Below, in pieces: positions 1,156 through 26,383 of a stretch of DNA of 32,000 nucleotides (its first letter is position 1; each line of letters opens with the position of its first letter). The translations under genes were made by a program, and so were the position numbers. The notes beneath the pieces are model-generated. The model was not told where the DNA came from and did not search any database. It saw nothing but the letters and a program-made list of their open reading frames with translations. The stretch lies in NCBI GenBank assembly GCA_016196885.1, contig JACPWU010000009.1, positions 8,400 through 40,399 of the forward strand, in the 5' to 3' direction. The stretch is from Chlamydiota bacterium. Its GTDB lineage: Bacteria > Auribacterota > JACPWU01.

Positions 1156-1773
1156 ATGGGTAGAATGAAGTTGATTCTTTTGGGTATGGGATTTGTTCTA
1201 TTTTTGGGTTTTTTCCCAAATCAGGTTTTCCCAGAAAAGGAAAGAATGATGAAAAAAGCGACATTTGCAGCCGGGTGTTTTTGGGGGGTGGAGAAGATTT
1301 TCGCGCAGTTGCCGGGCGTGGTTTCGACACGCGTCGGGTATTCGGGGGGAAATAAGCCTAACCCCACCTATGAACAAGTATGCATGGGAAACACAGGGCA
1401 TGCGGAGGCGATGGAAGTTACTTATGACCCTTCAAAGATTTCTTATGAGGAACTTCTCATCACTTTTTGGCAATATCACGATCCGACCACGCTCAATCGG
1501 CAGGGACCTGATCGGGGAAGCCAATACCGCTCCGTCATTTTTTATCACGATGAAGACCAAAAGGCAGCCGCCCAAAAATCCAAAGAGATTTTAGAGAGAG
1601 AAAAGGTTTTCAAGAATTCCATCGTGACGGAGATTGTTCCCGAGCAGCCTTTTTATCAAGCGGAAGAATATCACCAACAATATCTGAAGAAAAATCCGGG
1701 AGGGTATTGCTCTGGCCATCTACAGTCAGACCGGATTGAAGAGGTGTTAAAAGTCGTGGTTCGTCGTTCGTGA
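1156..1773 (+). CDS. msrA: Peptide-methionine (S)-S-oxide reductase MsrA, possibly with N-terminal signal/anchor
   Basis: Catalytic GCFWGVE motif and [19 protein letters not shown]. The track ORF starts at TTG 1126. ATG 1156 has GGAG 9 nt upstream and gives a hydrophobic N-terminus ([20 protein letters not shown]). ATG 1246 (MMKKATF), preceded by AAGGAAAG, would give a cytoplasmic form. The last residues (VVVRRS) are read from a heptamer array. Confidence 0.88.
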
Positions 1774-1838
1774 AACGTATTTCGTTAAAGGAATTTTGCT
1801 TATAAACGAGTGACGGTTCGCGAAATACGAACGACGGC
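1753..1838. repeat. Heptamer-armed palindromic element, TTCGTCG family, between convergent genes; likely bidirectional terminator
   Basis: Left arm is GTCGTGG TTCGTCG TTCGTGA AACGTAT TTCG. Core is TTAAAGGAATTTTGCTTATAAAC. Right arm is GAGTGAC GGTTCGC GAAATAC GAACGAC GGC. CGTCGTTCG (1762-1770) pairs with CGAACGACG (1828-1836), and GTATTTCG (1777-1784) pairs with CGAAATAC (1821-1828). The element is followed by CTTTTAAG. It overlaps the msrA 3' end and abuts the anti-sigma stop codon. Confidence 0.75.
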
Positions 1839-3284: not shown

Positions 3285-3351
3285 GTTTTAAGGTTTTTAT
3301 CTCTTGTTTTTTACAATTGACTTACGACTCATAACGATCGACTCACGACTG
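3285..3351. repeat. Partial heptamer element: inverted-type core plus single arm (GACTNAC family) immediately upstream of mfd
   Basis: Core GTTTTAAGGTTTTTATCT (3285-3302) closely matches the core at 30500-30520 (GTTTTAAGCGGTTTTTTATCT). The arm is GACTTAC GACTCAT AACGATC GACTCAC GACTG (3319-3351). Its reverse complement matches the left arm at 7541-7572 at about 26/32 positions. Confidence 0.7.
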
Positions 3352-3356
3352 TTTTT

Positions 3357-6300
3357 ATGACACATCCGATTCTTAAAAATCTTCATTTTTTCGAAGAGGT
3401 CTTGAAAAAGGTCCACGAGGGTTCTCGCATTCAGATGAGTGGCCTTTGGGATTCTTCCAAGGCGGCCTTGGCAGCTTGTCTTGCGGATCATTTCCAAAAA
3501 CGGATTCTGGTGGTGACTCCAGGATTGGGAGAAGCCGAGAGATTCTATCGGGATTTTTCTTTTTTTTCTGGAATCTCATGCCACCTTTTCCCCGCTTGGG
3601 AAACCTTGCCGCATGAGAATGTGACCCCTCATGTGGATATTGTAGGAGAGCGCTTTGGGACCCTGATGACCCTTTTAGAATCCGAAAGACCTGAATGCGT
3701 CATCGCCCCTGTCGAGACGCTGCTCTGGAAAATTCCTAGCCCAGAGTCATTTAAAAAAATGATTTTAAATTTATCTTGCGGGGATGAAATTCCTTTGCGC
3801 TTTTTAATGGAGCGTCTTGTAGAGCTGGGTTATTCCAGAGGGGCTGTGGTGGAAGAGAAGGGCCGTTTTGCAGTGAGGGGTGGCATTCTCGATTTTTATT
3901 CTCTGCAAGAGGATTTTCCCTACCGGGTGGAATTCGAGGCTGATCGCATTGTTTCTTTGAGGGTTTTTGATCCTCAGAGTCAGGTTTCTTTGAAACAAGT
4001 AGAACGGGCCAAGATTTTGCCTGCCTTTGAGTTGGAATTAAGACAAAAGAAAAATTTATCATGGGGAAATCTTTCGGATTTTTTTTCAAGTGATTTTTTG
4101 CTCGTCTTGGATGAGGCCGCAAATATTTTTGAAAAGGCGCAATCTCTGGAGAGGGCAAGCGATTTTGGGGTTAAGGTGTTGAAAAATCCCAGAGGTCTTG
4201 AGTTTTATCTTTCTGAGATGGAAGGGCCAGGGGGTGATGAAAAGATGGAGCGAATGGCTTTTTCTATCCAGAGGTCTTGTTCTTGGGAAGATTTGAGAGT
4301 AGAAAATTTGAACGAGGAATGGGGTGATCATCCTCTGCGAATTTTTTCAAAAATCGGCGAGAAGACGCGAGAGGGATTTCACATTTATTTTGTGGTGAAG
4401 AAAGAGGCAGAAGGAGAGAGGCTGAAGGAACTTCTTCAGGAGAAGAAGATGTGGAAAGAAGCCGTGCACCATGTTGTGGTCGGGGACCTTTCAAGGGGCT
4501 TTGTACTTCCCCTTGAAAAAAAGGCCATTCTTACCGACGAAGAAATTTTTGGGAGATTGAGGGTGCGTCCCGTTCGGACAAAGGTTCGTAAAAGTCTTCC
4601 CGTCCAGGAATATTCCCAGTTTGAGGTGGGAGACTGTGTGGTGCATGGGGTGCATGGGATTGCAAGATATCGGGGGGTGAGTCGTAACAGTCAGGGGAAG
4701 CGGGGAGAATATTTAACTTTGGAATATGCGAATCAGGCCAAGCTTTATGTTCCGGTGGATCAAATTGAACTGGTGGAGCGTTACATTGGGATCAAGGGGC
4801 AGGTCCCGCGGTTGAGCCGCTTGGGTCGGGGGGAGTGGGAACGCTCGAAGAAAAAGGCCGAAGGGGCGATTCACGATTTTGCGGCGGAGCTTCTGGATCT
4901 CCAGGCCAAACGCGAGGCTTTGGGGGGCTACGCCTTTGGGCGTGATACGCCATGGCAGAACGAGTTTGAGGCTTCCTTTATTTATGAAGAGACACCGGAC
5001 CAATGGCAGGCGATTGAGGAGGTGAAGCGGGATCTGGAATCTCCTCAACCCATGGACCGCTTGGTTTGCGGCGATGTGGGGTATGGGAAAACGGAGGTGG
5101 CCATTCGGGCGGCTTTTAAGGTGGTGATGGAGGGAAAACAAGTCGCCATCCTTGTTCCGACAACGGTTTTAGCGCAGCAGCATCTTTACACATTTCAGGA
5201 GCGATTTTCGGGATATCCGATTCAGGTGGAAATGCTCTCGCGGTTTCGCAGCGAGTCTGAGCAGGGGAAAATCTTAAAGGACTTGAAAGAAGGAAAATTA
5301 GATGTGGTGATTGGGACGCATCGCCTTTTAAATCAAGATGTGGTTTTTAAAGATTTGGGGTTGCTGGTGATTGATGAAGAACAGCGCTTCGGTGTTTTCG
5401 CCAAAGAAAAATTAAAGAAGATGAGGATTTCGGTGGATGTTTTAACGCTGAGTGCAACCCCCATCCCTCGGACCCTCTATTTGTCTTTGATGGAGGCCAA
5501 AGACATGAGCCTCATCATGACCGCACCTCAAAATCGCTTGCCCATAGAAACAGTTCTGGCGGCCTATGATGACCAGATGGTTCGAGATGCCATTGTTCGG
5601 GAAGTGGCGAGGGAAGGGCAGGTGTTTTTCATCCACAATCGTGTGGGAAGCATTTATCGCATGAAGGAAAGGCTCGAAAAATGGGTTCCGGGTGTTCATT
5701 TTGAAGTGGCGCATGGCCAAATGCCAGAGGATGAATTGGAAGAGGTGATGAAAAATTTTATAGAGGGGAAAATTCAGGTATTGGTTTCAACCAATATTGT
5801 AGAGTCGGGTCTTGATATCCCGAATGCGAATACCATTATCATAGATCGCTCAGAACATTTTGGGTTGGCGGATCTTTATCAATTGAGGGGACGGGTGGGG
5901 CGTCTCCATCGCAGGGCCTATGCCTATTTGCTTTATTCTCGAAATGGGATTTTGACGAAGGATGCCAAGCTCCGGCTAAAAACCATTGAGGACTTTAAGG
6001 AGCTGGGCTCTGGATTTAAGGTGGCCATGCGGGATTTGGAGATTCGAGGAGCTGGAAATATTCTGGGGCGAGCGCAGCATGGGCAAATTTCGGCCGTTGG
6101 ATTTGGACTTTATTGCCGGTTGCTGCAGGCTTCCATTCGTCGGATCAAAAAAGAGGAAGTGAAGGAACGCCACCCCGTGGGCTTGCAATTGGGGTTGGAC
6201 CTCACTTTGCCGCCAGAGTATATTCCAGATGATTCTTTGAGACTGCAAATGTATCGCAAGATTTTTGAAGTGGACTCTTCGCAAAAATTGGTCCAGGTGT

Positions 6301-7540: not shown

Positions 7541-7616
7541 CAGTCGTGAGTCGTGAGGGATGAGTCGTGAGTAAAAAATAACTCCTTTAAAACTCACGAC
7601 CCACGACCCACAACTG
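7541..7616. repeat. Heptamer-armed palindromic element, GTCGTGA family, full copy
   Basis: Left arm is CA GTCGTGA GTCGTGA GGGATGA GTCGTGA GT (7541-7572). Core is AAAAAATAACTCCTTTAAAAC (7573-7593). Right arm is TCACGAC CCACGAC CCACAACTG (7594-7616). It lies between the surA-like stop and the pdxA ATG. Confidence 0.8.
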
Positions 7617-8727: not shown

Positions 8728-8865
8728 CCACCTTCGCAATAAACTTTGAGGTTTTTGATAGAAAGATAGGCGTTGCTGGGTATGAAATTCTGTGATCAAG
8801 CAAAGTGGGGCTTCGGTGGGTTATGCTTGGGATGGTGCCTGAGTGTTTTAAGAATGCTCCAAATA

Positions 8866-8880
8866 TAAATACTACTTTAC
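8866..8880 (+). repeat. 15-bp direct repeat TAAATACTACTTTAC, copy 2
   Basis: Exact copy of 8713-8727. It abuts the palindrome at 8879-8898. Confidence 0.6.
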
Positions 8881-8898
8881 ATTTGGTACACCAAATGT
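8879..8898. promoter_or_regulatory. Operator-like palindrome ACATTTGGT-AC-ACCAAATGT, 12 nt upstream of the ATPase ATG
   Basis: Perfect 9-2-9 inverted repeat read directly. Its position just upstream of the start codon at 8911 suggests a dimeric regulator site. No binding protein is identified. Confidence 0.3.
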
Positions 8899-8910
8899 TA
8901 AGTTACGTTT

Positions 8911-10068
8911 ATGTTTGGTGGAGTTCGAAACCTTGAAGAAGTTATTCTCTCTGACTTAGAGAAGAAGTTTGTTTTTCTCTCCGGACCTCGGCAGGTCGGA
9001 AAAACCACGCTTGCCAAGAGAATAGTGAGGGAAAAAAAAGGGATTTATCTTCTCTACGACGATGAGGAAGATCGCCAGAAAATTCTGGCCAAGTCCTACG
9101 TGTCTCAATCTTGGGTCTGTCTCGATGAATTCCATAAATTCCCCCGATGGAAAAGTCAGATCAAGGGGGTCTACGACAAATATCATGAGTCCCTTCATCT
9201 TTTGCTAACGGGCAGTGCTCGGCTTGATGTGTTTCAAAAGTCAGGCGATAGCCTTTTCGGGCGATATTATTTACATCATCTGCATCCTTTGACCTGTGGG
9301 GAACTACGCTCTTCACATTTACCCCCTCTTTTGACAGATGTCGGCATGTTGCATGAGGGAGTAGACAGCGTGAAGCCTCTTTTAAAATTTGGAGGTTTTC
9401 CAGAACCCTTTTATACACATTCAGAGAAGGAACATCGTCGCTGGTCTAACGCGAGGCGGCATCTTTTGATTCAGGAAGAATTGAGAGAAATGACACAAGT
9501 CCATCTCATCGGTTTGGTTGAACAATTGATGCTGCTTTTGCCGGATCGCATCGGTTCTTTGTTTAGTTACCATTCACTTTCGGAAGATATTCGAGTCAGT
9601 GTTCCGACCATTCAGAACTGGATGGAGATTTTTCAGAGATTGTTTATCGTTTTTAAAATCACGCCCTATTTTAGAAAAATTGCGCGTTCGATTCAAAAGC
9701 GGCCCAAATATTATTTTTATGATTGGTCCCAAATTCCAGATGAAGGGGCTCGATTTGAAAATCTTGTCGCAAGCCATCTTTGGAAAGCGGCTCAGGTATG
9801 GACAGATGTAGGTGAGGGAGATCTAGGGCTTTGTTTTATTCGGGACCGAGACCAGAGAGAAGTGGATTTTTTAATCACAAAAGACCGTAAACCTTGGTTT
9901 TTGCTGGAAGCCAAGTTATCTGAAACTCAAATTTCAGAAAATTTGAAGTATTTTTCCAGACGTCTCAATGTTCCGGCAATTCAATTGGTATTAAAGGAAG
10001 ATGTTGAACGCAGGGAAGGAAATATTTCTGTGGTCAGTGCCGACCGCTGGCTAGCTCATTTGCCGTGA
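8911..10068 (+). CDS. AAA+ ATPase fused to a PD-(D/E)xK-like nuclease domain (AAA_14/DUF4143-type architecture)
   Basis: Walker A (GPRQVGKTTL), Walker B (WVCLDEF), and a C-terminal EVDF...LLEAK pattern that fits a D...ExK nuclease core. It lies between pdxA and ksgA. Confidence 0.8.
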   Translation: MFGGVRNLEEVILSDLEKKFVFLSGPRQVGKTTLAKRIVREKKGIYLLYDDEEDRQKILAKSYVSQSWVCLDEFHKFPRWKSQIKGVYDKYHESLHLLLTGSARLDVFQKSGDSLFGRYYLHHLHPLTCGELRSSHLPPLLTDVGMLHEGVDSVKPLLKFGGFPEPFYTHSEKEHRRWSNARRHLLIQEELREMTQVHLIGLVEQLMLLLPDRIGSLFSYHSLSEDIRVSVPTIQNWMEIFQRLFIVFKITPYFRKIARSIQKRPKYYFYDWSQIPDEGARFENLVASHLWKAAQVWTDVGEGDLGLCFIRDRDQREVDFLITKDRKPWFLLEAKLSETQISENLKYFSRRLNVPAIQLVLKEDVERREGNISVVSADRWLAHLP

Positions 10069-12756: not shown

Positions 12757-14181
12757 ATGGATTACGAACCCGTCATAGGTCTAGAAGTTCATGTTCAGCT
12801 CAAAACAGCGTCCAAGCTTTTTTGCGGCTGTTCGACGAAGTTTGGAGCGCTTCCTAACGCGCAGGTGTGTCCGGTCTGTTTAGGCTATCCCGGGGTGTTG
12901 CCTGTTTTAAATGAGAAGGCTCTGACCCTTGCGGTTATGGCGGGTCTAGCTATGGGGTCGACGGTTGCTCTCTACAGTAAATTTGATCGTAAAAATTATT
13001 TTTATCCCGATTTACCCAAGGCTTATCAAGTTTCACAATATGATGAGCCTATTTGTCTCGGAGGAAAAATTGACATTGAGGTAGAAGGGACACGCAAAGA
13101 GATTCGTTTGACGCGCATTCATTTAGAAGAGGATGCGGGGAAATCCATGCATTTCAAAGGCGACACAGGTGTGGATTACAATCGTACTGGAATCCCTTTG
13201 ATTGAAATTGTATCAGAGCCCGATTTAAGGTCTCCTCAGGAGGCCTATCAATACTTAAAAGAGCTGAAAACGATTTTAGAATATTTGGATGTGAGTGATT
13301 GCAACATGGAAGAGGGGAGTCTTCGCTGTGATGCGAATGTTTCTTTGAGGCCGGTAGGTGAGAAAAAAATGGGGACGCGAGCGGAAATCAAAAATCTGAA
13401 TTCTTTTCACAATGTTGAAAAAGCAATTACATATGAAATTGAACGCCAAAAAGAACTTTTGTCTCGGGGTGAGCGTATTGTTCAGGAGACTCGGCTTTGG
13501 AATGCGGATGAAAGCTTTACGCGTTCGATGCGAAGCAAAGAAGCCGCCCATGATTATCGTTATTTCCCTGAACCCGATTTAGTTCCGATCGTCTTTTCTG
13601 CTAAAGAGATTGAATCCGTTCGAGTGAGTTTACCAGAGCTTGCCCAGAGGCGCAAAGAGCGCTTTATGAAGGATTTTGCTTTGACGGCCTATGACGCGGA
13701 GGTTTTGACGGCCCAAAAAGACCTTGCCGATTTTTTTGAGCGCTGCCTAAAATATTCTAAAAATGCAAAGGCGATTAGCAATTGGATGATGGGCGATTTA
13801 ATGAGAGAATTGAAGTTGAAAGATTTGGGAATAGCCCAGTCTCCTATGTCCCCGGAGCATATTGCAGGATTGATTGAACTGATGGATCAAGGAAAAATCA
13901 GCGGAAAAATGGCCAAAGATGTTTTTCTTGAAATGTTTGGCACAGGAAAATCTGCGCAAGAGATTGTGAGCGCGAAGGGATTGAGTCAGCTTTCAGATTC
14001 CTCTCAAATTGAGGGTGTGGTCAAAAAAGTGATTCAGGAAAATCCACCTTCGGTTCAGGATTACCGAAATGGAAAGAAGAATGCTCTGAGTTATTTGGTA
14101 GGACAAGTGATGAAGGCCACTCAGGGTCGTGCAAATCCGAAGATGGTGAATGAGTTGTTGGTGAAAGAATTGGAAAAATAG
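12757..14181 (+). CDS. gatB: Glu/Asp-tRNA amidotransferase subunit B
   Basis: YEPVIGLEVHVQL N-terminus, CPVCLGYPGVLP, and a C-terminal GatB/YqeY domain. The TAG stop is the first nucleotides of the downstream heptamer array. Confidence 0.95.
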   Translation: MDYEPVIGLEVHVQLKTASKLFCGCSTKFGALPNAQVCPVCLGYPGVLPVLNEKALTLAVMAGLAMGSTVALYSKFDRKNYFYPDLPKAYQVSQYDEPICLGGKIDIEVEGTRKEIRLTRIHLEEDAGKSMHFKGDTGVDYNRTGIPLIEIVSEPDLRSPQEAYQYLKELKTILEYLDVSDCNMEEGSLRCDANVSLRPVGEKKMGTRAEIKNLNSFHNVEKAITYEIERQKELLSRGERIVQETRLWNADESFTRSMRSKEAAHDYRYFPEPDLVPIVFSAKEIESVRVSLPELAQRRKERFMKDFALTAYDAEVLTAQKDLADFFERCLKYSKNAKAISNWMMGDLMRELKLKDLGIAQSPMSPEHIAGLIELMDQGKISGKMAKDVFLEMFGTGKSAQEIVSAKGLSQLSDSSQIEGVVKKVIQENPPSVQDYRNGKKNALSYLVGQVMKATQGRANPKMVNELLVKELEK

Positions 14182-14261
14182 CGTACAGCGGATAGCGTTC
14201 AGCGTACAGGAAAAACACAATTCCTGATAAACTGAACGCTGTACGCTGATCGCTGAACGCT
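14180..14261. repeat. Heptamer-armed palindromic element, AGCGTNN family, full copy (type specimen)
   Basis: Left arm is AGCGTAC AGCGGAT AGCGTTC AGCGTAC AG (14180-14209). Core is GAAAAACACAATTCCTGATAAA (14210-14231). Right arm is CTGAACG CTGTACG CTGATCG CTGAACG CT (14232-14261). It is followed by AGGAG and the accD ATG. Confidence 0.85.
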
Positions 14262-14273
14262 AGGAGTTTTATC

Positions 14274-15125
14274 ATGGCTCTTTTTAAACGACCGAATTTT
14301 CTTCTGACCCAAAGCAAGAAGCGCGGTGTTCCAGGCGGGCTTTGGACCAAATGTGAAAGCTGTCAAGAGTTGATTTACAACAAGGAATGGGAAAATTCAC
14401 TCAAGGTTTGTCCAAAGTGTAAACATCATTGTAGTTTGTCGGCTCCTGAACGTATTCGTCTTTTGGTGGACGAGGGCACTTTTGAAGAATTTGATCCCAA
14501 CTTGATTCCGTCGGATCCCTTAAAATTTAGAGGGCCTAAATCTTATCCTGAAAAAGTGCTTCAGGATCAAGCGATGACAGGTCTTAAAGAGGCGGTGATG
14601 ACAGGGAGGGGAAAGATAGAAGGTATTTCAACTGTTTTAGCCGTGACGGATTCTCGTTTTATCATGGGATCGATGGGCAGTGTGGTGGGGGAAAAAATCA
14701 CGCGAGCCATTGAGAAGGCGATTGAAGAGGGACTTCATGTCATCATTGTCTCGGGCTCGGGTGGGGGGGCTCGCATGTATGAAGGGTGTCTTTCTCTCAT
14801 GCAAATGGCGAAAACCAGCGCGGCCTTGGCCAAATTGAGCGAAGCGGGTTTATTTTTTATTTCGGTTCTCACGCATCCAACCATGGCGGGGATTATGGCG
14901 AGCTTTGCCTCTCTTGGAGATGTGATTGTAGCGGAACCGCGGGCCCTTTTGGGTTTCACAGGCCCGCGTGTGATTAAGCAAACGATACAACAGGAATTGC
15001 CTCCCGGATTTCAGACCTCTGAATTTCTGCTCGCCCACGGCATGATTGATGGCATTGTCGAGCGCCCTGAATTGAAAAAGACGATTGCGAAGTTTTTGAA
15101 TTATTTTTCGTGGGGGAGAAGGTAA
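14274..15125 (+). CDS. accD: Acetyl-CoA carboxylase carboxyltransferase beta subunit
   Basis: N-terminal Zn-ribbon C-x2-C...C-x2-C (CESCQE...CPKCKHH) and a carboxyltransferase domain (GGARMYEG). Confidence 0.95.
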   Translation: MALFKRPNFLLTQSKKRGVPGGLWTKCESCQELIYNKEWENSLKVCPKCKHHCSLSAPERIRLLVDEGTFEEFDPNLIPSDPLKFRGPKSYPEKVLQDQAMTGLKEAVMTGRGKIEGISTVLAVTDSRFIMGSMGSVVGEKITRAIEKAIEEGLHVIIVSGSGGGARMYEGCLSLMQMAKTSAALAKLSEAGLFFISVLTHPTMAGIMASFASLGDVIVAEPRALLGFTGPRVIKQTIQQELPPGFQTSEFLLAHGMIDGIVERPELKKTIAKFLNYFSWGRR

Positions 15126-15128
15126 AAT

Positions 15129-15171
15129 TTAGAATTAACAATTAAAAATTAAGAATTGAAAAAAGTAAAAC
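15129..15171. repeat. Half heptamer element (TAANAAT arm + core), no right arm
   Basis: Arm is TTAGAAT TAACAAT TAAAAAT TAAGAAT TG, followed by AAAAAAGTAAAAC, which resembles the shared core. Confidence 0.6.
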
Positions 15172-15190: not shown

Positions 15191-16507
15191 ATGAATACGA
15201 ATATCGAATATCAAAAGACTCTCTCCTGGCTAGACACCCGATCCCGCTTCGGGATGAAATTGGACCTTGAGAATATTCGAGAGTTACTCGAGGCCTTGGG
15301 AAATCCTCATTCCAAGCTCAATGTTGTTCATGTGGCCGGGACCAATGGCAAAGGCTCCACTTGTGCCATGATGGTTTCTATTCTCAGAGAGGCGGGTTAC
15401 TCGGTAGGGCTTTACACATCTCCCCATTTAATTTCTCCTCGAGAAAGAATTCAAAAAAATGGGGAGTGGATTTCAGAAGGGCATTTTGTGAAGGGGATTT
15501 TGGAGATTAGATGTATCACTGAAAATTTGGAGGCGAAAAATATTTTCCCCACTTATTTTGAATTGATCACTGCCTTGGCCTTTTGGTTTTTTGCCCAAAA
15601 GAAGGTAGATTGGGTGGTTTTAGAAACGGGGATGGGGGGGCGTTTGGATGCGACCAATATTGTGAATTCTAAAACGCAAGTGATTACGAATATAGATTTA
15701 GAACACACGCAGTATTTGGGGAAAACCATAGGAGAAATTGCATCTGAGAAGGCGGGCATTATTAAATCAGGCTCTCATGTGGTCACAGCGGCTCAGGGAG
15801 AGGCACTGGAAGTCATTGAGGCAAGGGCGGATCTTTTAGGGGCTCGGGTATTGCGTCTGGGTCATGAACTTTCTTTTGAGAAAATAAACGCAGATTTAGA
15901 AGCTCAGAGATTTAAAATTCATACAACGCGCGATCATTATGATGTTTGTTTAAAACTTTTGGGTTCTCATCAGATGGAAAATGCTGTTTTGGCGGTAGCG
16001 GCTGTAGAGTGTTTGAGAGAAGGAGGCGCTTTAATCTCAAACGAAGCCGTTTTGTCCGGTTTAGAAAAGGCTTGTTGGCCGGGACGTTTTGAGGTGATTC
16101 AACGGGATCCTTTGGTCATTTTGGATGCGGCTCATAATCCAGCGGGGGCTCAGGTTCTAGCTAGAACCTGGAAAAAATATTTGAAGAATGAAAAAGCCTT
16201 GCTCATATTCAGTGCCTTGAAAGACAAAGATGTAGAGGGAATGGTTCAGGAATTATCAAATATTGTGAGAGAGGTAAGATTAGTCCAAGTTCATCATGAA
16301 AGAGGGTTATCACTGGGAGAGCTTGAGGACGCTTGGGAAAAAGTTCTTCCCCCTTCTCAGATTCACGCGTCTTCTCTCGAGGAGATGTTAGAATTTATTC
16401 ACGACGACAATCGAAAGGCACCTCTTTTAATTACAGGTTCTATTTATTTGTTGGGGGAGGTGCTTGAGAAAATGTGCCAACGTCATAATGTGCCAATGTG
16501 CCAATGA
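15191..16507 (+). CDS. folC: Bifunctional folylpolyglutamate synthase / dihydrofolate synthase
   Basis: Mur-ligase P-loop (VAGTNGKGST) and DAAHNP motif. It follows accD, as in the E. coli accD-folC arrangement. The last ~12 codons (MCQRHNVPMCQ) are read from the ATGTGCCA repeat array. Confidence 0.9.
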   Translation: MNTNIEYQKTLSWLDTRSRFGMKLDLENIRELLEALGNPHSKLNVVHVAGTNGKGSTCAMMVSILREAGYSVGLYTSPHLISPRERIQKNGEWISEGHFVKGILEIRCITENLEAKNIFPTYFELITALAFWFFAQKKVDWVVLETGMGGRLDATNIVNSKTQVITNIDLEHTQYLGKTIGEIASEKAGIIKSGSHVVTAAQGEALEVIEARADLLGARVLRLGHELSFEKINADLEAQRFKIHTTRDHYDVCLKLLGSHQMENAVLAVAAVECLREGGALISNEAVLSGLEKACWPGRFEVIQRDPLVILDAAHNPAGAQVLARTWKKYLKNEKALLIFSALKDKDVEGMVQELSNIVREVRLVQVHHERGLSLGELEDAWEKVLPPSQIHASSLEEMLEFIHDDNRKAPLLITGSIYLLGEVLEKMCQRHNVPMCQ

Positions 16508-16550
16508 CAAATGAATGATTTATGACATCGGCACATCGTTTTCGGCACAT
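16472..16550. repeat. Octamer/heptamer-armed palindrome (ATGTGCCA family) between convergent folC and rnc; likely bidirectional terminator
   Basis: Left arm is ATGTGCCA ACGTCATA ATGTGCCA ATGTGCCA ATGAC. The loop is A/T-rich. Right arm is ATCGGCACATCG TTTTCGGCACAT, followed by TTTTTATTT. ATGTGCC pairs with GGCACAT. Confidence 0.7.
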
Positions 16551-16552: not shown

Positions 16553-17266
16553 TTATTTCTCTTCCAAAATTTTTTCATACGCTGCCTTCGCGGCATTCTT
16601 CTCTGCTTCTTTCTTGCTGGGGCCAGAACCGTGGCCGTACACCTCTCCCTTGATGGTGACCGTGGCCTCAAAATGTTTTTTATGATCCGGGCCTGTTTCA
16701 GAGATGATGGCGTAAACAGGATTGCTTTTGTGCTTGATATGAGAGACTTCCTGCAAAAGATTTTTGTATTCCTTCGTGTGGATTTCATGCGGAAGTTTTT
16801 TGAGCAATCCTTTGAATTGTGAGAGGATAAATTTTCGAGCAGAGCGTATTCCGCCGTCCAGATAAATCGCCCCCATCAGGCTTTCAAAGGCATTCGCCAA
16901 GATCGAATCACGGCTGCGCCCTCCAGAGGCTTCTTCTCCTTTGCTTAAGAATAAATATTTGCCCAGGTCGATGTCTCGAGCCAGGATGGCCAAGGTTTCT
17001 CTTCGGATGAGCATGGATTTAATGATCGAGAGCTCACCCTCCTGATAGGTTTCAAACTTTCTGAAGAGAACGTCGGTGATCACCAATCCTAGAACAGAAT
17101 CTCCCAAGAACTCGAGCCGCTCGTTGTCTTTGACATCCATTTTTTGGCCATCATAGACAAAGGATTTGTGGCAAAGGGCCTCGTAGGCAAGATGTTTATG
17201 CTTGAAGGGATGACGAATCAATTTTTCAAGTTTGGCGAGCAATTTTTCTTCGCTTTTTGTTTTCAC
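16553..17266 (-). CDS. rnc: Ribonuclease III
   Basis: RNase III signature ERLEFLGDSVLGLVITD and a C-terminal dsRBD (GPDHKKHFEATVTIKG...PSKKEAEKNAAKAAY). The only in-frame ATG (17461) adds 65 non-conserved residues and overlaps the tolC-like start. GTG 17266 gives a canonical 237-aa protein. The start is uncertain. Confidence 0.88.
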   Translation of the reverse strand: MKTKSEEKLLAKLEKLIRHPFKHKHLAYEALCHKSFVYDGQKMDVKDNERLEFLGDSVLGLVITDVLFRKFETYQEGELSIIKSMLIRRETLAILARDIDLGKYLFLSKGEEASGGRSRDSILANAFESLMGAIYLDGGIRSARKFILSQFKGLLKKLPHEIHTKEYKNLLQEVSHIKHKSNPVYAIISETGPDHKKHFEATVTIKGEVYGHGSGPSKKEAEKNAAKAAYEKILEEK

Positions 17267-17375
17267 GCTAAAGTACTTTACCAAATTGAAGGGGGTGGAT
17301 TCAAGAGATGGTGAAATATTGTGTGTTCCCTCCCAAATTTGATACACTTCACATGATTGTGAGAATGAGGAAGCT

Positions 17376-18659
17376 ATGTTTTCAAAAAGCCTCTTGATAG
17401 GGTTGATTTCCTTCTTTGCTATTACCTCCCTTTTTTCAGAGTCGCCTCTTGTGTATCGCATGGAAGACTTGGTCCAGCGGGCGCTTGAGAATTCCCAGGA
17501 ACTGAAGCTTTTGGACGAGGATATTCAGCGTTCTGAAAAGGAATTGAAAGTGACCAGAACCTCTTATTGGCCGCATTTGACGCTTCAGGGAAATTTGGGG
17601 GTGGATCTTTTTTCTCTGGAGGATTTTGACCCGAATCGCAACATGGGATCGGATCTTATTTTAGATTGGAATTTTTTTCAAAATGGACTGGTTTTTTATC
17701 GGGTCGAGCAGGCCAAGGCCCAGGTGGAATTAGCCCGTCTCCAAAAGAAGGCAAAAGAGATTGAACTGGCGCATCACATTCGAATTTTGATTTGTGATCT
17801 TTTGGAGAAACAAGAATCTTTGAAATTGCAAGAGGCCGAGCAGGATTTTACTCAAAAGGGGTTTGAAAAACTTCGGTTGGAATTTGATCAGGGCAATGTG
17901 CGCAGGAATGATCTTTTGAAGCACCGGATTGAAATGTATGAGAAACAAAATCTTTTGGATCAGGCTCGAAGAGAGTATGAAGCAAACTTTCAAAAGATTA
18001 AAAATGAGGCGGATGTGATTTCTGTGGAAAATATTGCTCCACCTGAAATTGAAACGGAGACTTTGCCTTATGAAAAATGTGTCCAGATGGTTTTGAAGTG
18101 TCGTGTGGAGATTCGACAGGCTGAGATTCAGTCTCAATTGACTGAGCGGGCCCTTCGGGTCTCCAAACTGGGTTTGTTGCCTCGCTTGGACCTTTTTGCT
18201 GGAAATGCGTTTGCCCTGGATGATGTGGGCCAGAATTCAGATCCCTTTCAATTTCGCACGGGGGTCATTGCCCGTTACCCCTTGTACGATGGGGGCGAGG
18301 CCCGTCTTCAAATTGTGCTTGCCCAAATGGCGGTCCGAAAGGCCCATTTTCAATTAGAGGAGGCTAAGAAAAAAGTTTTGGGGGAGTTAGAAAGTGCCTA
18401 TGGAGATTGGGAAGATGCAAAGAGGTTTTTCCAAACGGGAGAGCTTCAATATGAGGGTGTGATGCAGGAATTTGAAAAAACGCAGGGTGAGTTTAAACAG
18501 GGCCAACTTTCTCCTTATGAATGGGAGGAAAGCGAATTGAGTCTGAGAAGAGCCCAAGCGCATGCCTTAGGTTTGAGGCTAGCCGTGATTCGCAGAGAGG
18601 CTGCCTTGGCAAAAGTGATGGGACTGAAAAGTTTGGAAGAGATGGCGGATCCGCAATGA
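17376..18659 (+). CDS. TolC-like outer-membrane efflux protein
   Basis: Signal peptide (MFSKSLLIGLISFFAITSLFS), GAGGAAG Shine-Dalgarno, and a coiled-coil-rich two-repeat OEP-family composition. ATGA overlap with the next gene. Confidence 0.8.
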   Translation: MFSKSLLIGLISFFAITSLFSESPLVYRMEDLVQRALENSQELKLLDEDIQRSEKELKVTRTSYWPHLTLQGNLGVDLFSLEDFDPNRNMGSDLILDWNFFQNGLVFYRVEQAKAQVELARLQKKAKEIELAHHIRILICDLLEKQESLKLQEAEQDFTQKGFEKLRLEFDQGNVRRNDLLKHRIEMYEKQNLLDQARREYEANFQKIKNEADVISVENIAPPEIETETLPYEKCVQMVLKCRVEIRQAEIQSQLTERALRVSKLGLLPRLDLFAGNAFALDDVGQNSDPFQFRTGVIARYPLYDGGEARLQIVLAQMAVRKAHFQLEEAKKKVLGELESAYGDWEDAKRFFQTGELQYEGVMQEFEKTQGEFKQGQLSPYEWEESELSLRRAQAHALGLRLAVIRREAALAKVMGLKSLEEMADPQ

Positions 18660-19870
18660 CATTTCAGAAAAAATCTTGGTTTTTATGGGGGGGCATTCCT
18701 ACCTTGCTTCTCTTTTTTTCTGTGGGGGCTTGGGTGCGCTCATTCCGTGAGTCTGTGGCCCCGGAGCTAAAGGCCGTGGTCTCTCGTGGAAGTATTCGTC
18801 AGGTGATTCAGGGGGGAGGCACCTTAGAGGCAGATGAAATCAAATCCGTCCAATCGCCGCTGGAGGGAACGCTCAAAAATATTTTCGTTCACAGCGGAGA
18901 TAGAATTAGAAAGGGAAAAATTATTTTCGAAATTGGAAACGATCATTTTAAACAAGATCTCGCATTGGCTCGAGCTCAGTACGATCAAGCACTTTTGGAA
19001 TGGAAGAAAATGAAAAATCTTCCGAACGAGGCAGCGATGCTGGAGGCCAAAAATACCTTGGAGAAGGCCAAACAGGTGCTCCAAGAAACAGAAAAGGAGG
19101 TTCGAGATAAAAAAGACCTCTGTGAAAAGGGCTTTATTTCTCAAAAGGAATTAGAAGATGCGCAAAATTATTTGAGCACGGCCAAGACGGAAAAAGACAT
19201 TGCCTTTTCGCGGTGGAGCGAAGTTTCAAAACCTTCCTCACAAGAGGATCGCAGCCTTAAGAAGGCAGAGCTTTCCAAGAAAAAAATGGAATTGAAAAAT
19301 CTGAAGGCTCAGTGGAAGGGCCGTCGTTTCAAATCCCCGTTTAAGGCCTGGGTGGTGGATATTTCAAAGAAGGTGAATGAAGAGGTGGGTCGAGAGGATC
19401 CGATTCTAAGCTTGGTCAATTTGGAAAAACCCTTTGTGGTCAAGGGGGCACTTTACGAATCGGACGTGCATGAGGTGAGAGAAGGAGAGAAGGCCTGGAT
19501 TAAAATGACGGGATCCCGTCAGAGGTTAAAGGCAGAAGTGACAGAGGTCTCCCCGATGGCGCAAAGCGTCGGGGGTGGAAGAAAATTCCCCATGAAATTG
19601 CGTGTTGATGGAAAAATTCGGGGCGTGCCTCGATTGGGTGTTGCGGTGGATTATGAAATTTTTGTTCAGGAGAAACAAAATGTTTTAACACTGCCGCTTC
19701 CTTTTGTGGTGCATGAAGAAAGTCAAAGAGGTGCCTGGGTTTTAAAGGGAGGAAAGGCTCGGTTCGTTCCTTTGGGATTGGGTCTGAGCGATGATGCAAA
19801 AATTGAGGTGATGGGGGGAGTCAAAGAGGGAGAGGAAGTGATTTTGCCGCGAGCGAGGGTTGAGTCTTGA
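18656..19870 (+). CDS. HlyD/MacA-like periplasmic adaptor (membrane fusion protein)
   Basis: N-terminal TM anchor (WFLWGGIPTLLLFFSVGAW), a lipoyl/barrel-sandwich segment (PLEGTLKNIFVHSGDRIRKGKIIFEI) and a long coiled coil. Start taken at ATG 18656, which overlaps the tolC-like TGA. Confidence 0.8.
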   Translation: MTFQKKSWFLWGGIPTLLLFFSVGAWVRSFRESVAPELKAVVSRGSIRQVIQGGGTLEADEIKSVQSPLEGTLKNIFVHSGDRIRKGKIIFEIGNDHFKQDLALARAQYDQALLEWKKMKNLPNEAAMLEAKNTLEKAKQVLQETEKEVRDKKDLCEKGFISQKELEDAQNYLSTAKTEKDIAFSRWSEVSKPSSQEDRSLKKAELSKKKMELKNLKAQWKGRRFKSPFKAWVVDISKKVNEEVGREDPILSLVNLEKPFVVKGALYESDVHEVREGEKAWIKMTGSRQRLKAEVTEVSPMAQSVGGGRKFPMKLRVDGKIRGVPRLGVAVDYEIFVQEKQNVLTLPLPFVVHEESQRGAWVLKGGKARFVPLGLGLSDDAKIEVMGGVKEGEEVILPRARVES

Positions 19871-19882
19871 AGAAGTAACCCC

Positions 19883-19943
19883 CCTAGCCCAGCAAGGAAG
19901 GCTGCACTGCCACTGGCAGTGCAGCCTTCCTTGCTGGGCTAGG
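19883..19943. repeat. 61-bp perfect palindrome (30-nt arms) in the macA-macB intercistronic gap
   Basis: CCTAGCCCAGCAAGGAAGGCTGCACTGCCA-C-TGGCAGTGCAGCCTTCCTTGCTGGGCTAGG. The arms are exact reverse complements, checked base by base. Confidence 0.9.
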
Positions 19944-19949
19944 TAAAAA

Positions 19950-20018
19950 AACATCTACTACCGCGGTCGGCTTTGCATTGCCACTGGCAATGCAGCCTCC
20001 CTTGCTGGGTTGGGGGAG
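19950..20018 (+). repeat. Left ~68-bp inverted repeat flanking the macB genes
   Basis: AACATCTACTACCGCGGTCGGCT | TTGCATTGCCACTGGCAATGCA | GCCTCCCTTGCTGGGTTGGGGGAG. The 23-nt outer block is an exact reverse complement of 22066-22088. Confidence 0.85.
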
Positions 20019-20041
20019 TTATTTCATTATCCTTGTCATTT

Positions 20042-20797
20042 ATGTCTGAAACCATAATCTTAAATTCCATTGAAAAAAAACTTGAGAGACCTCAAATCTC
20101 TTCCCCTATTCTCTGTGAATTAATCGCTGTTTCAAAAGAGTATTCACTCGATTCTGGAAATGTGATGGCTCTCAAAGACATCCATTTTCGCCTTTACGAA
20201 AAAGATTTTTTATCCATTTTAGGACCGAGTGGCTCTGGGAAAAGTACCTTGCTTCACATCCTGGGTCTTTTGTCAAATCCATCCAAAGGAAGAATTTTCT
20301 TTAAGGGACAGGATGTTTCTTGTTTGAGCGAATGGGCTTTGGCCCGATTGAGAGGCCAAAAAATCGGTTTCGTTTTCCAGGCCTTTCATTTGCTTCCCTC
20401 TCTCAATGCCTTGGAAAATGTAGCGCTTCCTCTCATCTATCAACGGGTCAGTGGGGGCCAGAGGAAGAGAAAGGCACTCGAGGCTCTTGAAAAAGTGGGG
20501 CTTGCAAGGCGTTCGCACCATTTTCCCAGGCAGTTATCAGGGGGAGAGTCTCAGCGAGTGGCAATTGCGAGGGCCTTGGTGAGTCAACCTTCTTTAATTT
20601 TGGCGGATGAGCCCACTGGAAATTTAGACACTCAGATGGGAAAAGAAATTTTGGGAATGCTCAAAATGTTGAATGAAGAAGGCAAAACGGTCGTGGTTGT
20701 GACACATGATGTTCGGATTGCGAATGAAGCCAATCGGATTCTCTTTTTGAAAGATGGGAAAGTAGAGAGTTTGAGTTCTAGAGGTGAGGCGAGATGA
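20042..20797 (+). CDS. MacB/LolD-type ABC transporter ATP-binding protein
   Basis: Walker A (GPSGSGKSTLL), signature (LSGGESQRVAIARAL), Walker B (ILADEPTGNLD). The track start 19973 lies inside the inverted repeat, so ATG 20042 is used. Confidence 0.9.
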   Translation: MSETIILNSIEKKLERPQISSPILCELIAVSKEYSLDSGNVMALKDIHFRLYEKDFLSILGPSGSGKSTLLHILGLLSNPSKGRIFFKGQDVSCLSEWALARLRGQKIGFVFQAFHLLPSLNALENVALPLIYQRVSGGQRKRKALEALEKVGLARRSHHFPRQLSGGESQRVAIARALVSQPSLILADEPTGNLDTQMGKEILGMLKMLNEEGKTVVVVTHDVRIANEANRILFLKDGKVESLSSRGEAR

Positions 20798-22020: not shown

Positions 22021-22088
22021 CCCTCCTCACCCAGCAAGGAAGGCGTTTCTTCCAGTGGAAGAAACAGCCGACCGCGGTAGTAGATGTT
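22021..22088 (-). repeat. Right ~68-bp inverted repeat flanking the macB genes
   Basis: The reverse complement reads AACATCTACTACCGCGGTCGGCT | GTTTCTTCCACTGGAAGAAAC | GCCTTCCTTGCTGGGTGAGGAGGG. It has the same three-part layout as 19950-20018, with a different but still self-complementary middle hairpin. Confidence 0.85.
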
Positions 22089-23276: not shown

Positions 23277-23351
23277 TTTAATTTCATTTTAGCACATTTT
23301 TTTTGATAAAATTGAAAACAGACAGAAATATTCATAACCTTATGATGTTTT

Positions 23352-23424
23352 CATCCTGAGGAGTGGAACGACGAAGGGTCTTGATTGAAAAACAAGATCC
23401 TTCGTCGCTGCGGCTCTCAGGATG
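23352..23424 (+). promoter_or_regulatory. Long two-tier hairpin in the gdh 5' leader
   Basis: Outer stem: CATCCTGAG(G)AG pairs with CTCTCAGGATG (11 bp, one bulge). Internal loop: TGGAA / CTGCGG. Inner stem: 15 bp, CGACGAAGGGTCTTG pairs with CAAGATCCTTCGTCG (one G:U). Loop: ATTGAAAAA. The hairpin ends 2 nt before the AGGAG preceding ATG 23443. Confidence 0.4.
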
Positions 23425-23442
23425 ACAGGAGACGGGCGGAAC

Positions 23443-24672
23443 ATGGACGCTTTTGAAACGACAAATATTTATTTCCACCGTGCTGCAGATCTTTTGGGTT
23501 TGAATGAAAGGGTTCGTACCCTCCTTCTCAATCCTTCCCGTGAGGTGAAGGTTTCCATTCCCATTGAGCGCGAGGACGGGACCCTGGCCCATTTTGTGGG
23601 TTATCGAATTCAACACAACAATGCGCGAGGCCCCTTTAAAGGGGGGTTGCGTTACCATCATCAAGTGAATGCTGAAGAGGTGAAGGGCTTGGCCTCTCTG
23701 ATGACTTGGAAAACGGGGGTGGTGGATGTTCCCTTCGGAGGAGCGAAGGGTGGCATTGCCTGTCATCCCCAAGATTTGAGCGAACATGATTTGGAAATTT
23801 TGACACGGCGATTCGTTCAGCAGATTCATGAATTCATAGGACCCACAGTGGATATTCCGGCGCCCGATGTGAATACCAACGCCCAGATCATGGCCTGGAT
23901 CATGGATGAATATTCGCGCATGAAGGGATATGCCCCGGCGGTGGTGACGGGAAAACCTTTAGCGCTCGGGGGCTCGGCGGGGCGTGAGGATGCCACGGGA
24001 CGGGGTTGTGCGATTGTGATTGAAAATTTTTTCAAGAGTCAGGGAAAAACTTTGAAGGGATTAAGATTTGCCCTTCAGGGATTTGGCAATGTCGGCTCTC
24101 ATCTGGCTCATTTCCTGGATGAAAAAGGGGCCCTTGTCATTGGGGTCTCAGACTCTCATGGGGGGGTGATGCGAGGGGAGGGGCTTGACATTCCCCGCTT
24201 GATAGAATATCAAAGGCGCGAGAAAACCGTGGTGGGTTTTCCACAGGGAAATTCTATCAGCAATGAAGAACTTTTGGTGATGGATTGTGATTGCCTGGCG
24301 CCTGCCGCGTTGGGGGAGGTGTTGACGCGAGAAAATGCAAGGCATGTGAAGGCGCGGGTGATTTTGGAGGCAGCCAATGCGCCGACCACCCCGGAGGCCG
24401 ATGAGGTTTTTGAAAAAAAAGGCAGGGTGGTCATCCCTGATATTTTGGCGAATGCCGGCGGCGTGGTGGTTTCTTATTTTGAGTGGGTTCAGAATCTTCA
24501 GAGTTTTAAATGGACTTTGGAACAAGTGGTGGAGGAACTCACGCGCGTGATGACGAAGGCTTATGAGTCCGTGGTGAACATTGCGACGACCAAAAAGGTA
24601 CCCTTGAGAACGGCGGCGTTTGCATTGGGTGTGGGAAGAGTCGCAAAGGCGATGACTTTGAGGGGATTGTAA
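23443..24672 (+). CDS. gdhA: Glutamate dehydrogenase (Glu/Leu/Phe/Val dehydrogenase family)
   Basis: Catalytic VPFGGAKGGI motif and a GFGNVG Rossmann dinucleotide motif. The start is taken at ATG 23443 (AGGAG upstream) rather than 23422, which lies inside the leader hairpin. Confidence 0.92.
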   Translation: MDAFETTNIYFHRAADLLGLNERVRTLLLNPSREVKVSIPIEREDGTLAHFVGYRIQHNNARGPFKGGLRYHHQVNAEEVKGLASLMTWKTGVVDVPFGGAKGGIACHPQDLSEHDLEILTRRFVQQIHEFIGPTVDIPAPDVNTNAQIMAWIMDEYSRMKGYAPAVVTGKPLALGGSAGREDATGRGCAIVIENFFKSQGKTLKGLRFALQGFGNVGSHLAHFLDEKGALVIGVSDSHGGVMRGEGLDIPRLIEYQRREKTVVGFPQGNSISNEELLVMDCDCLAPAALGEVLTRENARHVKARVILEAANAPTTPEADEVFEKKGRVVIPDILANAGGVVVSYFEWVQNLQSFKWTLEQVVEELTRVMTKAYESVVNIATTKKVPLRTAAFALGVGRVAKAMTLRGL

Positions 24673-24673: not shown

Positions 24674-24753
24674 GACAGTCCACAGTCCAGGGTCGGCAGT
24701 CCACAGAAAAAAATTCCTTATAAACTGTTGACTATGGACTATCAACTATGGAC
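24674..24753. repeat. Heptamer-armed palindromic element, CAGTCCA/CTATGGA family, full copy
   Basis: Left arm is GA CAGTCCA CAGTCCA GGGTCGG CAGTCCA CAG. Core is AAAAAAATTCCTTATAAA. Right arm is CTGTTGA CTATGGA CTATCAA CTATGGA C. It lies between gdh and the cNMP-binding gene. Confidence 0.85.
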
Positions 24754-25290: not shown

Positions 25291-25370
25291 AAAATTGAGA
25301 ATGAATGATTGAAAATTGATAATGAAAGTGAAATGTCAATTTTCCATTCTCAATTATCAACTCTTTTTTT
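25291..25370. repeat. Heptamer-armed palindrome (ATTGANA/TCAATTN family) with T7 tail; terminator-like
   Basis: ATTGAGAATG (25294-25303) pairs with CATTCTCAAT (25345-25354). GAAAATTGA (25311-25319) pairs with TCAATTTTC (25336-25344), leaving one unpaired heptamer. The right arm is followed by TTTTTTT (25364-25370). Confidence 0.7.
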
Positions 25371-26233: not shown

Positions 26234-26254
26234 TTTGTTTCGAATTTCGGATTA

Positions 26255-26383
26255 GGCATATGCACTTGATTCCCCTCAGATAGCAAGAATTTGTAGTCGC
26301 CCCATTTATGGGGCAGCCTTGTGCCCCTTGCATGGATTGCCCGATGAATCGGGCGACTACTAGGGGAATCAAGTGCATATGCC
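26255..26383. mobile_element. MITE-like 129-bp element with perfect 22-bp terminal inverted repeats
   Basis: GGCATATGCACTTGATTCCCCT (26255-26276) is the exact reverse complement of AGGGGAATCAAGTGCATATGCC (26362-26383). One nucleotide outside each TIR lies a 10-bp direct repeat, ATTTCGGATT (26244-26253 and 26385-26394). There is no coding capacity. Confidence 0.7.
26293..26360 (+). repeat. REP doublet (REPIN/BIME-like), GTAG-type, with 24-nt spacer, nested in the MITE-like element
   Basis: GTAGTCGCCCCATTTATGGGGC (26293-26314), a 24-nt spacer AGCCTTGTGCCCCTTGCATGGATT, then GCCCGATGAATCGGGCGACTAC (26339-26360), which is the reverse complement of GTAGTCGCCCGATTCATCGGGC. Confidence 0.75.

Follow-up and report, generated by a model that had tools for sequence, protein, structure and literature searches.

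Why are so many housekeeping genes of one bacterial genome separated by long palindromes assembled from 7-nucleotide (nt) repeats? The question is raised by a 32,000-nt stretch of a metagenome-assembled genome (MAG) of a Chlamydiota bacterium, placed in the Auribacterota by GTDB (assembly GCA_016196885.1, contig JACPWU010000009.1, positions 8,400 to 40,399 of the forward strand), which is referred to here at its full length as the window. The type specimen lies at 14180-14261, between gatB and accD, and consists of four AGCGnnn units, a 22-nt center, and four nnnCGCT-type units, exactly as an earlier note on this DNA had read it. We conclude that this element and its counterparts in the window are probably dispersed selfish palindromes, resembling repetitive extragenic palindromic (REP) sequences and miniature inverted-repeat transposable elements (MITEs), and built of heptamers of the short tandemly repeated repetitive (STRR) type. 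The window family is a local version of a widespread, little-studied repeat of bacteria and phages and not a new kind of regulatory element.

Palindromes of tandem heptamers in the window

There are 10 to 11 intergenic palindromes in the window, and each arm is made of three to five tandem heptamers (elements are named below by their first position; Table 1). Tandem Repeats Finder reports 10 period-7 rows at the loci listed in the earlier note, together with a period-8 array at 16471-16506, and these rows and an inverted-repeat search show that the listed copies are real, including the one with an 8-nt unit (e16472). A strict run detector finds seven period-7 runs in the window and only 0 to 2 runs at periods 5, 6, and 8 to 10; 60 dinucleotide shuffles average 0.28 period-7 runs and never have more than 2. 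All seven lie within the noncoding DNA that makes up 7.8% of the window, and the predicted 7-nt periodicity is thus both above shuffled background and intergenic.

The elements are about 75 to 95 nt in size, with an asymmetric center loop of 18 to 28 nt and arms that are 73 to 86% complementary to one another in the inverted-repeat search. RNA folding gives z-scores of -3.0 to -7.6 for the seven full copies and -1.9 for e16472, and there is no folding signal in the half copies at 3285 and 15129 (the latter within e15124). A full, half, or split element is present in 10 of the 17 spacers longer than 60 nt, in agreement with the earlier statement that most such spacers are covered, and adding the 45-nt folC/rnc spacer raises the count to 11 of 18. 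The 8 nt before an element contain on average 4.3 A residues and the 8 nt after it 5.4 T residues (background, 2.1 and 2.3), and these flanking A- and T-runs are mutually complementary and lengthen the palindrome. A U-run of at least four lies within 8 nt of 8 of 10 elements, e74 and e14180 having no immediate U-run. The upstream stop codon is at the first unit or falls within it, with the next Shine-Dalgarno (SD) sequence or ATG 1 to 20 nt past the right arm, so the elements adjoin stop codons and end just short of the next translational start, as had been noted. The genes themselves have housekeeping functions (among them dxs, tlyA, msrA, a sigma/anti-sigma pair, mfd, a surA-like gene, pdxA, ksgA, gatCAB, accD, folC, rnc, a MacAB-TolC-like pump, and prpDBC).

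Kinship of the elements and the nature of the core

The arms had been thought to be locus-specific, which pairwise alignment contradicts. Full-length identity is 78% between e74 and e14180 (z = 17) and 81% between e24674 and e30470 in reverse complement (z = 13.5), and e7541 aligns with e3285, likewise in reverse complement (z = 10); weaker, significant links also connect the subfamilies. A full-length multiple alignment reveals a deviant third unit common to e7541 (GAGGGAT), e24674 (CAGGGTC), and e30470 (AATGGTC). Because this deviant unit is shared across subfamilies, the order of units is inherited and not made separately at each locus, and because sibling pairs share their arms, the arms are not locus-specific; arms and core are inherited together. 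The alignments thus indicate that the core-bearing elements are one dispersed repeat family, present in both orientations, of which the core is an inherited asymmetric loop.

The core (an A-run and then YTCCTK..AAAC) occurs in six to seven elements (e74, e1753, e3285, e7541, e14180, e24674, and e30470), and a relaxed version of the pattern finds six window loci versus 0.9 in shuffles. It is absent from e25291, e16472, and e26238, and the claim of a shared core therefore holds for the former group and fails for the latter. An arm-less core-like string at 8649 does not stand out from chance; a match at 25399, which is one of the six loci of the relaxed pattern, is better than that string and is also attributable to chance, lying inside coding sequence (MDRKIPLN). 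As a cross-genome motif the core was rejected, the relaxed pattern having 24 matches in 2.37 Mb of other loci and none inside a heptamer palindrome. We take the core to be real, yet specific to this genome as judged from these comparisons.

The earlier note offered the conserved core as a functional platform, and the density of cores has to be weighed in this light: the window has six such loci, whereas the frequency in the 2.37 Mb elsewhere would predict about 0.3 for 32 kb. In such a dedicated regulatory module, the A-run/TTCCTTATAAAC core would be read by a nucleoid-associated or RNA-binding protein, or would form an anti-SD loop pairing with a downstream AGGAG, with the variable heptamer stems presenting the core and the whole insulating or tuning the neighboring genes. 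The loop sequence UUCCU could indeed base-pair with the AGGAG downstream of e14180 and e24674, and the authors who described heptamer repeats in Nostoc and the Beggiatoaceae speculate on heptamer-binding proteins. However, common descent of whole elements fully accounts for conservation of the core, which is missing from the elements of the sister MAG and from all other heptamer palindromes examined. The copy at 30470 runs against the direction of transcription, no SD sequence is available for pairing with e7541 and e74, two of the four copies in sense orientation, and the matching junctions of relatives have no elements. We regard a dedicated module as quite improbable.

Matching junctions in related genomes

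The nearest available relatives are 70 to 74% identical in GatB, and their elements differ or are absent. The five nearest retain the gatCAB-accD-folC-rnc-pump synteny, with rnc on the minus strand. The gatB-accD spacer is 92 nt in the window, with its AGCG-type element and core; in the sister MAG (L085) it is 142 nt and holds a coreless AGTCAAC-type palindrome with a 7-nt loop; and it is element-free in L087 (10 nt), L059 (2 nt), and L089 (2 nt). In the latter three genomes the clusters that bear elements in the window are compact, with the matching genes overlapping or 2 to 23 nt apart. Likewise, folC and rnc overlap in relatives, and the window has a 79-nt palindrome in between. Where relatives do have elements these are of other kinds, with an AGCG-type half arm in the surA-pdxA spacer of L087 (a GAGTCGT element in the window) and a full AAAAATC-type palindrome in the accD-folC spacer of L085 (only a direct AAAATTA array in the window).

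Such differences between otherwise syntenic junctions point to lineage-specific additions with fast turnover. That elements lie within clusters seemingly co-transcribed in relatives argues against conserved operon punctuation. The statement that they mark almost every operon boundary was too strong, and the suggested role as insulators is not supported; the boundaries are those of genes, and several are inside clusters that three relatives keep compact. We note separately that L085 codes for a group II intron reverse transcriptase (RVT_1 and GIIM domains, 17074-18243) near the syntenic region, with no evident tie to the repeats.

Occurrence in other phyla, metagenomes, and phages

The architecture is not confined to this lineage. 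Among 80 GatB loci of other phyla, period-7 arrays are prominent in several, and about one-third of them are inverted pairs, with a layout of stop codon, three to four heptamers, A-rich loop, complementary heptamers, and then SD sequence and ATG. Examples are found in Elusimicrobia (L023, AGCGTGA..), Omnitrophota (L068, TAGCGTT..), Thermodesulfovibrionales (L019), Desulfobacterales (L032, L063, and L070), and Hydrogenedentota (L039). A scan with an AGCG pattern of 26 fixed bases (three AGCGnnn units plus AG, a gap of 10 to 35 nt, and three CGCT units), for which about 0.01 chance matches are estimated, finds period-7 palindromes at at least 120 metagenome loci and at 12 viral loci. In the viral set the period-6 version of the pattern gives 0 and the period-8 version 1, and the AGTC version at period 7 is present at 27 loci.

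A set of 139 AGCG elements, metagenomic and viral, was parsed. The modal arm has four units, the median loop is 17 nt, and minimal loops of the form AG-AAAAA-CT are frequent. By crude open reading frame (ORF) calling, 54 elements are in tandem, 18 in convergent, and 6 in divergent contexts, with a median start 6 nt past the upstream stop codon and an end 27 nt ahead of the next start codon. Of the 54 tandem elements, 23 have an upstream ORF that closes at a TAG in phase with the array (offsets +6, -1, -8, and -15), and the window has counterparts in gatB (-1) and dxs (-15).

A GC-rich viral contig (IMGVR_UViG_3300031949_000144) has 22 period-7 runs in about 18 kb and four sibling AGCGCAn palindromes, each directly before an SD sequence and ATG and with a common loop, GATCCGGACGCC (3313-3386 and 11474-11542 of L212; 475-536 and 4438-4506 of L217). 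Because these siblings have a shared loop of their own, the combination of heptamer arms with a genome-specific core recurs outside the window.

The pairing of the arms is looser than a mirror image. Across the three variable positions of the unit, arm complementarity reaches 76% in AGCG and 62% in AGTC elements, compared with 43% and 39% for shuffled partners; strict mirror symmetry was rejected, as complementarity stays at about 0.60 when the arms are offset by -2 to +2 units. Each element has its own unit common to both arms, from which a hairpin can form in several registers. In 7 of 22 AGTC elements the phased tetranucleotide alone is retained, without arm complementarity, as would be expected of a phased protein site and hence in keeping with the regulatory module weighed above. 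Some viral AGTC elements (L223, L228, L244, and L248; e.g., L223 7358-7413) have (AGTCGAT)n on the left and (GACTGCT)n on the right and form a poor hairpin. Conservation in some AGTC members may concern the phased motif rather than the ability to pair.

Direct heptamer arrays are also abundant. In BLAST comparisons of the type specimen with annotated phages and plasmids, only arm-length matches to direct heptamer arrays were obtained, in Ralstonia phage RSL1 (with a "hypothetical protein" beneath the match) and in an unannotated part of a Caballeronia replicon. In-phase direct arrays number 101 in viral contigs, with several in the Caballeronia replicon; a direct-direct control pattern drew mostly such long contiguous arrays and is not a clean control for the inverted arrangement. 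The replicon (NZ_CP071130.1 of Caballeronia sp. M1242; L250 990-2270) has about 1.3 kb of unannotated DNA with six long direct arrays end to end, including ACGCCAA x67, AACCAAG x41, and AAAGGCA x23. As the strain is cultured, these arrays could serve for the study of heptamer slippage.

Slippage brings in a further explanation, in which each spacer grew its own microsatellite by polymerase slippage, a process favored at 7 nt, and the array was then made palindromic by template switching, with no copying between loci and with any likeness due to mutational or compositional convergence. Heptanucleotide simple sequence repeats (SSRs) are reported to be the most abundant class of long SSRs in the majority of surveyed genomes (Mrazek 2007, as summarized in PMC4679880), and long homogeneous direct arrays are common in the viral contigs and Caballeronia. 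The many different units side by side in the window and the lack of a preferred register between arms are also compatible with growth in place. It does not explain why sibling pairs share unit order, a deviant unit, an asymmetric core, and flanks at 78 to 81% identity in both orientations, and the 2-nt spacers of relatives give no seed from which an array could grow. Moreover, the four-unit mode and heterogeneous units are unlike the long homogeneous arrays made by slippage. We therefore give this explanation little credence, and copying of whole elements is preferred.

A bolder reading is that palindromes of about 4+4 heptamers at strict 7-nt spacing form a single cross-phylum class of bacteria and phages, with AGCG and AGTC as recurrent cores and a location exactly between the stop codon and the next ribosome-binding site (RBS). 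They would then be either a new small mobile element, whose phased tetranucleotides are subterminal binding sites for an enzyme, or a conserved module between cistrons, recognized by machinery that the hosts have in common, and variable arms with a family-specific core, as in the window and the GC-rich phage contig, would be the general signature. We offer this tentatively, as conceivable but doubtful.

Terminators, RNA-level evidence, and a proposed mechanism

Could the elements be plain factor-independent bidirectional terminators of this lineage (A-run, stem, and U-run), selected as such, with the repeats incidental? The A-run/T-run brackets are enriched, and both short convergent junctions (1753 and 16472) carry an element. 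The excess of convergent (18) over divergent (6) contexts in the metagenome set and the median start just past the stop codon are consistent with this role, and canonical terminators in the window are not above chance. Against this, several elements separate genes that are 2 to 23 nt apart in relatives, e74 and e14180 have no immediate U-run, the AGCG elements of other genomes show little T-run enrichment, and other gene ends in the window have different palindromes. Loops of 18 to 28 nt on mismatched 30-bp stems also depart from known intrinsic terminators, in which a short G+C-rich stem with a loop of 3 to 8 nt is followed by a U-tract. Selection as plain terminators is thus unlikely.

For the preferred reading of selfish, dispersed palindromes we propose the following course. 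Whole elements would be copied to new sites, for which a hairpin-recognizing transposase and repair-mediated copying are candidates, and would persist only at gene 3' ends, where in-phase heptamer stop codons and a position before the SD sequence would render them harmless. As 7 equals 1 modulo 3, three units could close all three frames and cap the upstream reading frame. A role of the heptamers as suppliers of stop codons in all three frames is conceivable, with only indirect support from the 23 in-phase TAG ends among 54 tandem cases. The arms would drift through 7-nt slippage, leaving a hairpin in several registers. Once transcribed, the mismatched hairpin and U-run would most likely act as a leaky bidirectional terminator and/or a protective hairpin at 3' and 5' ends, and might be cleaved by the RNase III encoded at 16553-17266. 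The element would be a tolerated or mildly useful passenger and not a dedicated regulator.

Several observations weigh against this reading. The part of the genome that was covered comprises the 32-kb window and about 2 kb of DNA upstream of it, taken from the same assembly run. At the boundaries of siblings no target-site duplication of the kind that marks MITEs was seen; no transposase was seen, nor was any Y1 transposase of the RAYT type among the window genes on this contig of the MAG. No pair of copies is more than 81% identical, giving no sign of recent mobility, and selfish spread alone does not account for the recurrence of AGCG, AGTC, and AAAATC unit cores across phyla. At the RNA level, there is no consistent gain for the sense strand in folding, both strands doing equally well on average, with e1753, e30470, e14180, and e25291 better in sense and e74, e7541, e24674, and e16472 better in antisense (for e7541, -30 kcal/mol in sense versus -46 in antisense). 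In 51 tandem-context AGCG elements, sense G:T (17) and A:C (11) mismatches do not differ significantly, and the loops show no bias relative to the coding strand (29 A-rich and 22 T-rich); these folds, wobble counts, and loop orientations thus give no sign of selection at the RNA level and do not separate it from the DNA level. Scans for generic promoters and terminators found nothing above shuffles and picked up no element, and loops of this size on stems of about 30 bp with periodic mismatches are atypical for intrinsic terminators. A strong terminator between gatB, accD, and folC would, in addition, split what seems to be a co-transcription unit in relatives. We note that Rfam 15 has no matches at gathering threshold in the window.

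Individual elements and other features of the window

The window elements and some unrelated features are compiled in Table 1. A third palindromic family, with CCCAGCAAGGAAGGC in common, lies at 19872-20025 and 22030-22070. The ATPase gene at 8911-10068 looks inserted, because pdxA and ksgA are adjacent in L087. The 161-nt segment within the dehydrogenase gene is missing from the NCBI copy of the contig (L082), and the gene, intact in the window, is uncalled in the public record; the discrepancy reflects either the assembly or variation within the population.

Table 1. Heptamer elements and other features of the window
Feature	Coordinates	Strand	Structure	Context
e74	74-160	+	Full, AGCG type; four heptamers (AGCGTAC..), A-run/TTCCTT core, four CGCT heptamers; fold z -5.7	Upstream dxs frame closes at in-phase TAG 87-89 within left arm; tlyA ATG at 165
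e1753	1753-1838	+	Full, TTCGT type; core GCTTATAAAC; fold z -5.1	Convergent msrA (stop codon in left arm)/anti-sigma gene; TAAAA and TTTTA at ends
e3285	3285-3351	-	Half copy; reverse-oriented core and one GAGTCGT-type arm; sibling of e7541	Divergent sigma/mfd spacer
e7541	7541-7616	+	Full, GAGTCGT type; core AAAAAATAACTCCTTTAAAAC; fold z -4.0	surA-like stop codon 7535-7537; pdxA ATG 7622
e14180	14180-14261	+	Type specimen, AGCG, 4+4 heptamers; core GAAAAACACAATTCCTGATAAA; arms 83% complementary; fold z -7.6	gatB stop TAG 14179-14181 overlaps first unit; accD SD AGGAG 14262, ATG 14274
e15124	15124-15171	+	Direct AT-rich AAAATTA-type array, 5.6 copies, then AAAAAAGTAAAAC; no right arm; fold z 0.15	accD-folC spacer
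e16472	16472-16550	+	Palindrome of 8-nt units (AATGTGCC), no shared core; fold z -1.9	Convergent folC (stop codon in left arm)/rnc
e24674	24674-24753	+	Full, CAGTCCA type; core AAAAAAATTCCTTATAAAC; fold z -3.2	Glu/Leu/Phe/Val dehydrogenase stop 24670-24672; SD/ATG (24771) of cyclic nucleotide monophosphate-binding protein
e25291	25291-25365	+	AT-rich AATTGAG-type palindrome, no shared core, then T7 run; fold z -3.0	Downstream gene most likely starts at 25391
e26238	26238-26409	+	Split TTTCGGA-type arms (26238-26253 and 26385-26409)	Interior is a nested composite palindrome with a GTAG-tagged REP-like doublet (26293-26360)
e30470	30470-30547	-	Full, AGTCAAC/AGTCCAT type; minus-strand core ATAAAAAACCGCTTAAAAC; fold z -4.7	prpC stop 30462-30464; epimerase ATG 30565
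AAA_14/DUF4143 ATPase region	8618-10093		Gene 8911-10068; 293-nt upstream spacer; 29+29 palindrome 8859-8918	Between pdxA and ksgA
CCCAGCAAGGAAGGC family	19872-20025 and 22030-22070		Palindromic; fold of 19865-20045, -103 kcal/mol	Perfect 30+30 palindrome 19883-19943 between yknX-like and ABC ATPase genes; related hairpin after ftsX
Upstream palindrome	23351-23425		36+36, imperfect, 78% complementary	Directly upstream of dehydrogenase start codon; divergent spacer with DUF1570 gene
161-nt segment	24261-24421		Present in window	Inside Glu/Leu/Phe/Val dehydrogenase gene 23422-24672

Comparison with known repeat systems

The kinship with STRR-type heptamers and with REP-like palindromes and bacterial interspersed mosaic elements (BIMEs) that the earlier note proposed is upheld. 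STRR heptanucleotide sequences of heterocystous cyanobacteria were reportedly described by Mazel et al. in 1990, and such repeats are said to have been known since then; to our knowledge, no function or origin has been established for heptanucleotide repeats. The window matches STRR and heptanucleotide SSRs in having tandem heptamers (at least three copies) above chance that are dispersed over 11 intergenic sites in 32 kb, with several unit types per genome. The AGTCAAC unit (e30470 and L085) is a cyclic permutation of CAACAGT, which we take to be an STRR unit, as presumably is TTGGTCA (L063 and L070). Unlike STRR, usually described as direct arrays, the window arrays are short (about four units), heterogeneous, and palindromic around a core. 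Nor is the host a heterocystous cyanobacterium: the MAG, which comes from groundwater, is labeled Chlamydiae at NCBI and its gene content is not cyanobacterial.

Intercistronic hairpins acting as RNase III sites or mRNA stabilizers are familiar from the R sites of the phage T7 early region, the malE-malF REP, and the puf operon. The window elements resemble them in being long, imperfect, and between cistrons, including those of phage genomes. The T7, malE-malF, and puf hairpins leave protective 3' and 5' hairpins after processing and, in contrast to the window elements, are not built of tandem repeats.

REP sequences, BIMEs, and REPINs are likewise short, imperfect, extragenic palindromes with a lineage-specific sequence (PMC3733652, PMC3116915), and the window shares with them many related extragenic copies in both orientations and a bias toward 3' ends and convergent junctions. 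Those systems have high copy numbers, with proposed roles in termination and mRNA stabilization (PMC3733652, PMC3116915). The heptamer elements have no GTAG/CGTC tag, starting instead with an A-run and AGCG, CAGTC, or GTCGT, and REP arms are not tandem repeats. We note a separate family of GTAG-tagged, REP-like doublets at 26293-26360 and 31916-31964, in which GTAGTCGCCCC-ATTTAT-GGGGC is paired with GCCCGATGAATCGGGCGACTAC; one doublet is nested, within a larger palindrome (26254-26384), in the loop of e26238. Hairpin loops may thus be targets for insertion.

Other short heptamer arrays are found near start codons. In Nostoc, regulatory effects of such arrays are unclear (bioRxiv 10.1101/2022.06.06.494920). 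The TAACTGA arrays of marine Beggiatoaceae (MacGregor 2015; PMC4679880) have 2 to 6 copies within a few nt upstream of start codons, and their patchy cross-phylum distribution suggests horizontal spread, with function unknown. They are similarly short and close to start codons. They differ from the window hairpins, which lie upstream of the RBS, in having 169 direct sets versus 1 inverted, a single unit, and overlap with the RBS (PMC4679880). Polymerase slippage is the cause proposed for heptanucleotide repeats by Mrazek (2007), as summarized in PMC4679880 and PMC4692102.

The closest parallel is the (GGGANTN)n repeat of Xanthomonas campestris and X. axonopodis (Rehm et al. 2015; PMC4692102), and the view that no comparable element had been described has to be withdrawn. 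Its units are heterogeneous, with 4 to 5 conserved positions, its arrays mostly have four units, and 70 to 75 convergent inverted pairs can form stem-loops. These repeats are 89 to 93% intergenic, lie on average 28 nt behind the upstream ORF, and are depleted between divergent genes; they are transcribed, no function was found, and they were interpreted as G-quadruplex formers (PMC4692102). The window elements are likewise two close convergent arrays of heterogeneous heptamers with about four units each. Whereas each Xanthomonas genome has a single G-rich unit, the window has several that are not G-rich (AGCG, AGTC, TTCGT, and AT-rich), and AGCGTAC, GAGTCGT, CAGTCCA, TTCGTCG, and AATTGAG have no tracts of three to four G residues; the preference for four units therefore cannot be a G-quadruplex requirement. 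The long, shared, asymmetric loop is not described for the Xanthomonas repeats (PMC4692102).

Should the class prove mobile or functional, uncultured bacteria would have in it a common intergenic feature that annotation misses, with consequences for gene calling and for operon and terminator prediction. The main value of the locus lies in the access that it gives to a widespread class absent from annotation, with its phasing at 7 nt, its size of four units, and its registration with stop codons. Set beside the systems above, what is new is the palindromic 4+4 form well beyond Xanthomonas and cyanobacteria, including on phage contigs; phasing that is specific to 7 nt (12 viral loci, versus none with 6-nt and one with 8-nt spacing); relatedness of the copies within a genome over their whole length, which suggests that they spread as units; and the frequent provision, by the element itself, of the stop codon of the upstream gene.

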